From Escherichia coli (GTDB taxonomy: Bacteria; Pseudomonadota; Gammaproteobacteria; Enterobacterales; Enterobacteriaceae): DNA of 1,551 nt. Shown in pieces: positions 1 to 1,551 of the stretch. The stretch's first letter is position 1, and each line of letters starts with the position of its first letter. Where the stretch lies: the NCBI RefSeq assembly GCF_003334335.1, contig NZ_QOWQ01000102.1; one strand, 5' to 3'. A program made the translations under genes and the position numbers. The notes under the pieces are model-generated. The model was not told the DNA's origin. It saw only the letters and a list, made by a program, of their open reading frames with translations, and searched no databases.

Positions 1-218
1 GGGCTGACGCCGGAAGAGTCAGAGAACAGATACCATTTTTACTGTAAAACCGTGGCCAATATTACTTGACCACTACAGCATTACCGAAACGGCTTTCATC
101 GCTGCAAGGTTTTTCTTTGCCGGAATGTATCCGGTCAGCTTATACCCTGCTGATAACCTGCGCCCTTAAACATGCGGGCTGCAGCCTGTTGAGCCTGCCT
201 GAAATGAGCTAGGATTAG

Positions 219-446
219 GTGAAACACCTATCCATCTTGGTGTACTGTACATATGAAGCATGTGCCTTGATGCAGCTTGTAGCGATTTGTATGCAACCGA
301 TGACATTAATCCGTAAGACATGGGAAAAGATAGCAACTGAGATCCTAAGTTTGAATGTTATCACGCCTGCGTTTGAGAAACTTCGTTGGAAAAGTAACCT
401 CGGTAAACCCCCGTGCCCTGAGCTCATTCCGGAGATGCTGTCATAG
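219..446 (+). CDS. Hypothetical small protein (75 aa), unrecognised; possibly spurious
   Basis: ORF from the supplied track with a GTG start at 219 and TAG stop at 444-446. An AGGA motif sits at 211-214, 4 nt upstream of the GTG. No family recognised. It is fully overlapped by the antisense ORF 215-427. Confidence 0.15.
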
Positions 447-486
447 TGACCGTCTTGCTATTGGTGGGAATTGGAGACTGAATGTT

Positions 487-520
487 TTGACAAGACAGTC
501 CGGGAAATTCTGGGTGTAAT
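487..520 (+). promoter_or_regulatory. Candidate sigma70-like promoter upstream of the tRNA remnant (perfect -35 hexamer, poorly spaced -10)
   Basis: TTGACA at 487-492 is an exact -35 consensus. The nearest -10-like hexamer is TGTAAT at 515-520, giving a 22-nt spacer, which is longer than the usual 16-19 nt. A promoter-like motif only. Confidence 0.2.
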
Positions 521-549
521 CATATAAGACAGGTGATATTGCGTTCTCC

Positions 550-620
550 AACCCTTTAGCTCAGTGGTAAGAGGACTCATAATCGCTTGGTCGCTGGTTC
601 AAATCCAGTAAGGGCCACCA
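550..620 (+). pseudogene. Degenerate tRNA-Ile(CAU)-like remnant (tRNA-Ile2 / ileX-ileY family); not foldable into a full cloverleaf
   Basis: Seen in sequence: D-arm GCTC(559-562)/AGTGGTAA/GAG; anticodon loop CTCATAA (576-582, anticodon CAT); variable region TGGTC; T-arm GCTGG(593-597)/TTCAAAT/CCAGT(605-609); acceptor 3' strand AAGGGCC (610-616), discriminator A, encoded CCA (618-620). Defects: the acceptor 5' strand reads AACCCTT (550-556) where GGCCCTT is needed, and only GA lies between the D-stem and the anticodon loop, so the 3' anticodon-stem strand TCGCT (583-587) has no partner. From memory of the enterobacterial tRNA-Ile2 sequence this amounts to a deletion of about 5 nt plus a few substitutions. 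Confidence 0.6.
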
Positions 621-931
621 TCACACACTGCCACTGGCCCATTGCGCCATGCCCGGCGCATATCAGCCACAGAGCCTTTCGGGGATAATTTGCAGAGTGG
701 TCTGGCTGACTTTCTCTGTAGGCAGATCGTTCCCGCTTGATAGCTCATCCCCCAAAGAAACGTCACGATATTTGGTATTTTCAAAATTCAAAAAGAAAAC
801 CCGCAGAGTGGCAACAGAGATTAAAAAGTTTGAGAAACGCGATCTGGCACAGGCGGTGATTGGTGTTGGAGTGATGGTAGATTTTATCAGCCGGATAATG
901 TCGGTTCTGGCTGATAGCTGGGGTTGTTGGT

Positions 932-1126
932 GTGGTCTTCCTATTGATGAAAAAACAAGCAATTACTTGGCATATTATCTGTAACACTTTAAAACTGTTA
1001 AGAAGATCACAATTCATTATGTTTATTATTGTCTGGCCGGAGGGATATTTGTTAAAAAGTGCGCCGTGTGGTGAATCCCCCTGTGCGGTGGGGCGACTGG
1101 TGTACATAGCATTTATTATGTTATGA
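932..1126 (+). CDS. Hypothetical small protein (64 aa), unrecognised; likely spurious
   Basis: ORF from the supplied track with a GTG start at 932 and TGA stop at 1124-1126, about 90 nt upstream of the strong plus-strand terminator. It lies in an AT-rich tract and overlaps ORFs 649-984 (+) and 781-1107 (-). No convincing ribosome-binding site and no recognisable motif. Confidence 0.1.
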   Translation: MVFLLMKKQAITWHIICNTLKLLRRSQFIMFIIVWPEGYLLKSAPCGESPCAVGRLVYIAFIML

Positions 1127-1217
1127 GCGAAGCCTACGCGGGTTCAGTGACACCGACTGAATTCACCGGGAGGCACCCGGCACCATGCAACAGACGCAAG
1201 TTAGGCTAAGCCTTATA

Positions 1218-1246
1218 CCCCTGTAAGTTTTTTACAGGGGTTTTTT
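1218..1246 (+). terminator. Rho-independent terminator (perfect 9-bp stem, 5-nt loop, T6 tract)
   Basis: CCCCTGTAA (1218-1226) pairs perfectly with TTACAGGGG (1232-1240) around loop GTTTT, followed immediately by TTTTTT (1241-1246). Confidence 0.7.
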
Positions 1247-1254
1247 GTGCACAG

Positions 1255-1277
1255 AAAACCCCCAGCTAGGCTGGGGG
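1255..1277 (-). terminator. Candidate rho-independent terminator for minus-strand transcription (convergent with the 1218-1246 terminator)
   Basis: CCCCCAGC (1259-1266) pairs with GCTGGGGG (1270-1277) around a 3-nt loop. On the minus strand the hairpin is followed by TTTTCTGT (complement of 1251-1258). The U-tract is only 4 nt, so this is weaker than the plus-strand terminator. Confidence 0.4.
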
Positions 1278-1551
1278 TTCCGGAAAGCTTTCAGCTTTGA
1301 GCCAGTTATTAAAACTCTGAACCGGTTCCTGGCACGAATATCATTCCCGGCCTGCGCTTTGATTATCTCAGCGACTCCGGCGGGAACTTCAGCCGCAGTC
1401 TGAATCTTTCGCAGGAATTGGGCGATTATTTCAAAGTCAAAGCAGGGGTTGCCCGAACCTTTAAAGCCCCAAACTGTACTGACCCCAAAAAGTTGGACAG
1501 TTAAACACGAGGCATATAGGTCTGATTCCGATATTCAATTGGAGTCAGACC

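Follow-up and report, generated by a model that had tools for sequence, protein, structure and literature searches.

Prophage remnants, insertion sequence ends and an STnc100 small RNA gene in a gene-poor stretch of an Escherichia coli genomic island

We analyzed a 1,551-nucleotide (nt) stretch of Escherichia coli DNA (assembly GCF_003334335.1, contig NZ_QOWQ01000102.1), which is referred to here in its entirety as the window. Our analysis indicates that the window is very probably non-coding debris within a genomic island, produced by prophage decay and insertion sequence (IS) activity, in which no open reading frame (ORF) is a gene and in which only the gene for the small RNA (sRNA) STnc100 still looks intact. 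A gene-free run of about 1.4 kb is unusual at the coding density of E. coli. The outcome is a clean negative, as a "dark" 1.5 kb is explained except for about 100 nt and calls for no new gene or mechanism; the components are all of known kinds, and RefSeq already carries pseudogene annotation at this locus. The window also illustrates how E. coli islands erode, with prophage relics pared by IS200, IS150, IS3-family, IS4, and IS100 elements, and how a small RNA gene can outlast all of the protein genes around it.

ORF content and the tciA'-'tciB fusion

The initial annotation of this DNA, made from the sequence and its ORFs, saw no convincing protein gene in a set of small overlapping ORFs, and this assessment holds. 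The longest ORF in the window encodes 111 amino acids (aa) (649-984, plus strand), and exactly seven ORFs reach at least 60 aa, overlapping each other on both strands (219-446, 649-984, and 932-1126 on the plus strand; 215-427, 599-784, 663-962, and 781-1107 on the minus strand). In 1,000 dinucleotide-preserving shuffles of the window, the longest ORF measured 99 ± 24 aa and was at least 111 aa long in 26% of cases, and the number of ORFs of at least 60 aa was 4.0 ± 1.7 per shuffle, with seven being reached in 8%. These figures match the window, and its ORF content is therefore at chance level. The start-less frames described as running to the right edge on both strands are indeed present. On the plus strand, frame 3 is open by chance from 1404 for 49 codons, and on the minus strand, frame 1 (1551-1501) is the last 16 codons of an IS150 transposase. 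An NCBIfam scan of the ten longest window ORFs gave nothing meaningful, and a PHROG scan returned only stubs of the phage proteins TciA and TciB, plus a spurious family built on the left end of IS200. Three promoter-like sites on the minus strand are no greater in number than in shuffles.

Homology searches resolve the window from position 176 onward into truncated, frameshifted, or start-less remnants, or STnc100. This bears out the earlier suggestion of a decayed or pseudogenised accessory region rather than an operon. Three features had gone unremarked: the C-termini of IS3-family transposases at both edges, a full-length Rfam sRNA at 1036-1250, and a tRNA-like sequence at 550-620.

The 111-aa ORF is a deletion fusion of two phage gene remnants, tciA' and 'tciB, extended by chance read-through. 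Searches with blastn and tblastn against phages Evi and JLK-2012 place the tciA' stub at 768-861 on the plus strand, where the first 29 of 143 codons of a TerB-like "tellurite resistance" gene remain (phrog_632, profile positions 2-35 of 143, E = 9.5e-8). Its start codon has changed from ATG to ATA (768-770), a 7-nt insertion follows codon 6, and the full domain of about 143 aa is lacking. The 'tciB stub (871-962, plus strand) retains codons 17-32 of about 54 and matches DUF3927 (Pfam PF13064, positions 14-31 of 53, E = 4e-4) as well as phrog_1470 (positions 13-32 of 54, E = 2e-6). An 11-nt frameshifting deletion follows, such that the frame shifts past codon 32 and the complete protein of about 54 aa with its hydrophobic segments is not encoded. 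A deletion of about 390 nt brought the two stubs together in frame, and the ORF at 649-984 accordingly runs through phage intergenic DNA, tciA' codons 1-29, 'tciB codons 17-32, and an out-of-frame tail.

A protein match covering one of the small ORFs in a single frame had been named in advance as an observation that would speak against a decayed region. Formally, such a match exists, as the 111-aa ORF matches TciA and TciB/DUF3927 in one frame. However, because it comprises two stubs joined by a deletion and the tciA start codon is lost, this match reflects decay rather than a gene.

One could still propose that a genuine small protein, a DUF3927-type fusion of TciA and TciB, is made from the 111-aa ORF or from a 95-aa version with a GTG start. 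The three single-frame profile matches given above speak for this proposal, as does the presence of the ORF in dozens of contigs, with some RefSeq entries naming a "DUF3927 domain-containing protein." Nevertheless, the ORF keeps only 29 of 143 TciA codons and 16 of about 54 TciB codons, the tciA start is ATA, and the first 40 residues come from translation of phage intergenic DNA. Because the last 22 residues are read in a different frame from TciB, both predicted TciB membrane segments are lost. In addition, the NCBI Prokaryotic Genome Annotation Pipeline (PGAP) marks the tciA' site, and with it the site of the 111-aa ORF, as a pseudogene in complete genomes, the length of the ORF is within chance, and a putative single-base change in an A-run at about 783-786 would also break its frame. 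We thus consider a real protein very improbable here and retain the deletion fusion.

The A-run itself lies within tciA', and a hand comparison of 147-aa and 108-aa cluster members suggests that they differ there by a single base in length. The commoner allele yields a 147-aa antisense ORF (104 contigs), and the window allele yields a 108-aa antisense ORF together with the 111-aa sense ORF. Neutral slippage at this run would fit a pseudogene.

Prophage, IS, and iroN remnants in the island

The alignments described below establish the identity, boundaries, and lesions of each remaining fragment. A lambdoid relic of about 800 nt (451-1250) corresponds collinearly to the interval that separates Q from the lysis genes in Shiga toxin (Stx)-converting and related phages (Evi, JLK-2012, and PA2). 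In the late-region "moron" layout of Stx and other lambdoid phages, Q is followed by a methylase, the ileZ/argN/argO tRNAs, stx or tciAB, an sRNA, nanS-p, and a holin. The relic retains this order for the methylase 3' end, an ileZ-type tRNA, tciA, tciB, and STnc100. Unlike the phage segment, it is missing Q, the further tRNAs, most of tciA and tciB, and everything downstream, and its remaining genes are inactivated. Its left limit is the 3' end of a small "DNA methylase" ORF (451-527, plus strand; stop codon TAA at 525-527), which has a 74% match to 134 Stx-type phages and a hit to phrog_14488 (E = 0.003). Collinearity with phage PA2 continues from this end into the tRNA, and in Stx2 phages the ORF precedes the tRNA genes.

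At 550-620 on the plus strand lies a pseudo-tRNA of the phage ileZ, or tRNA-Met(CAU), type. Compared with the intact tRNAs of Evi and PA2, it carries G1A, G2A, and a 5-nt deletion, which break acceptor pairs 1-72 and 2-71 and remove the 5' half of the anticodon stem. In Evi, the intact counterpart is called as tRNA-Met(CAU), with two further tRNAs after it that are both missing from the relic. It might be argued that 550-620 is a working, if unusual, tRNA or the attachment (att) site of an integrated element, given that its Rfam tRNA (RF00005) score is marginally over threshold (30.7 against a gathering threshold of 29, or 1.7 bits over) and that it is 88-90% identical to host tRNA-Ile. Yet the anticodon and acceptor positions are unpaired in that match, ARAGORN detected no tRNA at 550-620, and the fold contains no cloverleaf (z = -0.43), as opposed to the complete cloverleaf recognized by tRNA finders that a functional ileZ-type tRNA has. 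Both flanks are also collinear with phage DNA, the methylase upstream and the tciA leader downstream, which makes the sequence the ileZ-type gene of the phage itself rather than an att duplication. We find the alternative scarcely credible and regard 550-620 as a decayed phage tRNA gene. An earlier candidate boundary, with the left limit of the lambdoid DNA exactly at the 5' end of the tRNA as at an att site, was likewise rejected, as the PA2 alignment continues through the upstream spacer.

To the left of the lambdoid relic is a pseudogene scrap of a P2-like GpA replication endonuclease gene (176-432, plus strand), corresponding to an internal part of the protein (about aa 175-262 of 804). 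Its nucleotide identity to the gpA gene of phage Cartapus is 78%, with six indels in the alignment, and its tblastn match (E = 9e-18) contains in-frame stops and frame changes; it also matches phrog_91 (E = 5.8e-5). An intact GpA ORF of about 800 aa is not present at 176-432, and in strain W46 PGAP labels the scrap [quoted passage not shown] An extension of the gpA homology to 467, based on a shared "WW," was rejected, since 451-527 is collinear with the Stx-phage methylase ORF.

Between the left IS end and this scrap lies island DNA without coding or RNA signal (78 to about 188; no strand assigned), which is present in 463 E. coli genomes. A search of a phage collection with 78-185 gave no match, and PHROGs did not recognize 78-188 as gpA. 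A search of E. coli for distant relatives of this segment of about 110 nt returned only diverged copies (79-84% identity) in unannotated DNA of other E. coli islands, where they lie between a higA antitoxin gene beside type VI secretion system genes and decayed integrase pseudogenes.

On the other side of the relic, the left end of IS200 (1246-1315, plus strand) corresponds to about nt 1-70 of the 707-nt element and includes a bidirectional terminator hairpin (1257-1279, IS200 nt 12-34). These first 70 nt or so, hairpin included, are identical to complete IS200, and in the comparison with the complete copy in strain CMZE120, identity stops at 1315. The stub lacks the tnpA leader stem-loop, the art200 region, and tnpA. 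It also matches Rfam family STnc490 (RF01405) at 62.4 bits against a gathering threshold of 56, with only about model positions 1-60 aligned, which made it a candidate gene for the art200 sRNA. According to the published IS200 coordinates, art200 is antisense to the tnpA 5' untranslated region (PMC4513863). The art200-encoding region is absent here, as only IS200 nt 1-70 is present, and the STnc490 match is therefore a fragment rather than an art200 gene.

Fused to this stub is a fragment of the salmochelin receptor gene iroN (1316-1476, plus strand; about codons 432-484 of 725). Its translation matches IroN, and it is 98% identical to the intact iroN of strain D8. The full 725-aa receptor, with signal peptide, plug, and barrel, is not encoded, the remainder being deleted or located beyond IS150. 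As in the iro locus of islands of the extraintestinal pathogenic E. coli type, iroN is followed in near-identical genomes by iroE, iroD, and iroC in the usual order. The differences are that iroN lacks codons 1-431 and is split by IS150, and that iroE and iroC are frameshifted as well in those genomes.

The window ends within this IS150 (1477-1551, minus strand), at its right inverted repeat (IRR). The last 16 transposase codons (1551-1501; stop codon 1501-1503) lie beside the IRR, the terminal repeat TGTACTGACCCC starts with TG at 1477, and PGAP annotates an "IS3-like element IS150 family transposase." AAC (1474-1476) is the 3-bp target duplication; it recurs at the far junction of IS150, beyond which iroN resumes. 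The opposite edge is the right end of an IS3-family element (1-77, plus strand), with the last 22 transposase codons (GLTPEESENRYHFYCKTVANIT), a stop codon at 67-69, and the element end ...CTACA at 77. NCTC86 has this end at 100% identity, and the partial IS3 family transposase that PGAP annotates there stops at window position 69. In genomes without the left IS block, other DNA is joined exactly at 77/78. The transposase C-termini at both edges open with the same GLTP motif, GLTPEESENRY... at 1-69 on the plus strand and GLTPIEYRNQTY... at 1551-1501 on the minus strand, and the window is thus framed by two inward-facing IS3-family elements.

In all genomes with near-identical copies, the host locus is an E. 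coli genomic island, flanked on one side by a sugar-utilisation cluster (rbsK-fucP-aldose epimerase) and on the other by the decayed iroN/iroE/iroD/iroC cluster and then fimbrial genes; RefSeq annotates only pseudogenes in the stretch. A mosaic of this kind might be an assembly artefact in a chimeric contig, as many repeat-element junctions fall inside 1.5 kb and no complete RefSeq genome matches the window end to end or has exactly this combination of insertions. However, positions 78-1551 are contiguous at 99.6% identity in 48 complete genomes, and NCTC86-type genomes contain positions 1-1273 and 1263-1551 at 99.9-100% identity, with an IS4 insertion and its 11-bp duplication as the sole difference. 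Independent closed assemblies thus show every one of the junctions, and we give a chimeric contig practically no credence over a genuine genomic mosaic.

Based on these junctions, we infer an order of events for the locus. A lambdoid prophage resembling Stx phages would have been cut down to about 800 nt of its late-region "moron" segment, after which the tRNA, tciA, and tciB would have gained inactivating deletions and frameshifts and lost a start codon. The P2-like gpA scrap and the unassigned island segment would have come to lie to the left of this relic. IS200 lies directly after the STnc100 terminator, and a later deletion would have fused IS200 nt 70 to iroN codon 432. IS150 would have inserted into iroN with the AAC duplication, and an IS block with an IS3-family element at its end would have inserted at 77/78.

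Other strains carry further insertions in the same DNA. The IS4 of NCTC86-type genomes lies inside the IS200 terminator hairpin and is flanked by an 11-bp duplication of 1263-1273. In strains CMZE120 and 190693, IS100 (IS21 family) lies in the relic just past the pseudo-tRNA, near 631, and these two insertions indicate ongoing IS traffic. Both IS100 flanks carry the same 89 nt (window 631-719), far more than a normal target duplication. In a comparison with strain WP2-W18-ESBL-10, six sites differ within 78-1551, including one in the STnc100 terminator stem (1240) and two in the IS200 hairpin (1278-1279).

The STnc100 small RNA gene

The initial annotation had also raised the option of a small-RNA-bearing region, and one complete sRNA gene is present. 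Using cmscan, we identified STnc100 (RF02076) at 1036-1250 on the plus strand, with a score of 138.5 bits against a gathering threshold of 47 (E = 4.7e-32) over model positions 1-206 of 206. The structured core (1066-1188) contains helices P1, P2, P3, P4, and P5 and a pseudoknot and is followed by a linker and a terminator. The minimum free energy fold reproduces P1-P5 and the terminator (z = -3.56). The intrinsic terminator (1217-1247, plus strand) has an 11-bp stem and a six-T run and was recognized both by a terminator scan (1217-1241 plus the T-run) and in the fold. The sequence and structure of the gene are intact, with no helix broken and with changes in P1 that are G·U-compatible.

Reading the upstream sequence by eye, we found a promoter-like site 7 nt 5' of helix P1 (1029-1058, plus strand). 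It consists of a -35 hexamer TTGTCT (1029-1034), an 18-nt spacer, a TG (1050-1051), and a -10 hexamer TAAAAA (1053-1058). In the STnc100 alignment, the block TTGTCT...TTTGTTAAAA(A/G) is conserved among E. coli-type phage copies, and other STnc100 copies have a -10-like hexamer at an equal distance from P1. This site is the putative STnc100 promoter, and the RNA would begin at helix P1. STnc100 is predicted from its sequence to be an RNA of about 185 nt, and it is the sole element of the window with all of its apparent parts.

STnc100 overlaps EcOnc27/sRNA103, an Hfq-binding sRNA encoded just downstream of stx2B, the overexpression of which raises fimZ and espA transcripts by an unclear mechanism (PMC12711010, PMC7873438). 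Members of the family have been demonstrated in enterohemorrhagic E. coli (EHEC) by Northern blot and by Hfq cross-linking and analysis of cDNA (CRAC) (PMC7873438), and STnc100 is considered related to PasD (bioRxiv 10.64898/2026.05.13.724894). As a member of this family, the window STnc100, if expressed, most likely acts as an Hfq-binding prophage sRNA like EcOnc27/sRNA103. Like the phage copies, it has a full model match, the same helices, a 3' terminator, and tciB upstream. Among 131 STnc100 copies on viral contigs, the commonest nearest same-strand ORFs upstream are TciB and StxB, and those downstream are NanS-p-type esterases and holins. With its tciB stub upstream, the relic therefore keeps the normal upstream neighbor. 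Unlike the phage copies, the window STnc100 is orphaned in a decayed relic in which IS200 and iroN fragments replace the esterase and lysis genes, and none of the phage copies examined shares the sequence of its linker and terminator (1190-1250).

These differences raise the question as to whether everything in the window is dead, STnc100 included, with the sRNA simply being the most recently orphaned piece and either untranscribed or useless. All of the phage elements beside STnc100 are inactivated, and its normal downstream partners, the esterase and holin, are gone. Antisense partner sRNAs of the AsxR/AgvB type have been described for EHEC phages (PMC7873438), and the Rfam scan of the window detected none. 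The promoter-like site is only moderate, and in some strains, WP2-W18 among them, the terminator stem is weakened by a G-to-T change at 1240. On the other hand, the match covers the full model, the helices are unbroken with the P1 changes G·U-compatible, the pseudoknot keeps six pairs, and the promoter-like block and terminator are in place. The core is also the best-conserved part of the relic, with 93% identity to the copy in phage Evi compared with 79-88% for the tRNA, tciA, and tciB parts. While a wholly dead window deserves to be taken seriously, we judge it unlikely and favor the reading in which STnc100 would still be transcribed and active at this locus.

Several observations weigh against the overall interpretation of the window as debris with a surviving sRNA gene. 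A generic promoter scan did not call the site at 1029-1058, and its -10 hexamer, TAAAAA, is without the usual final T. Copies of the relic are 99.6-100% identical among strains, which is too little variation for a selection test on the sRNA. The segment from 78 to about 188 is without an assigned origin, and the order of the rearrangements is unprovable from one sequence. Finally, automatic annotation in some genomes turns this ORF, at a length of 95 or 111 aa, into a protein labeled "hypothetical" or "DUF3927 domain-containing"; we regard the "DUF3927 domain-containing protein" calls on this ORF as pseudogene artefacts.

A candidate pseudoknot in STnc100

In STnc100, the segment directly after P2 pairs with the P4 loop, forming a pseudoknot (1101-1106 with about 1152-1157 in the window). 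We aligned and scanned 72 unique STnc100 cores, of which 71 were scored. Pairing was scored per sequence and with cross-pairing controls, as the MAFFT alignment shifts the register of the P4 loop between variants. At least five Watson-Crick pairs with the copy's own P4 loop were found in 89% of copies, compared with 17% of cross-pairings; the cores are mutually related, and these percentages are not probabilities. At least eight unrelated helix sequences occur at this position, including AUCAGCA/UGCUGAU, CCAGUC/GACUGG, CUGGUG/CACCGG, GGUUG/CAACC, and CCAGAC/GUCUGG. The window copy forms six pairs (UGGUGU/ACACCG). No pseudoknot is mentioned in a recent PasD/STnc100 preprint, and this covariation-supported helix, as predicted from the sequences, is possibly a new side result. 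It could help work out the mechanism of a very abundant prophage RNA adjoining Shiga toxin genes.

The core also has nearly invariant junction nucleotides, directly behind the promoter-like site and ahead of the terminator. One speculative view gives STnc100 a role beyond that of a linear seed-pairing Hfq sRNA, with a compact, pseudoknot-locked core of five helices that might bind a specific protein or a small ligand or act in cis on downstream late genes. Its survival in the relic would then reflect selection for a function that benefits the host. We hold this view to be doubtful and somewhat less probable than a window that is dead throughout.

Two further observations concern the STnc100 family. 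In several viral contigs, two same-strand STnc100 cores occur at a distance of 220 or 484 nt, and tandem copies thus exist in some prophages. In addition, the 5' half of P2 (CCCCCUGU, window 1077-1095) resembles the 5' half of the terminator stem (CCCCUGUAA, 1217-1241), and a likeness is also seen in phage copies between the 3' half of P2 (GGAGGGG) and the 3' half of their own terminator. This likeness could reflect an alternative pairing, an antiterminator switch, or a coincidence of G/C-rich hairpins.

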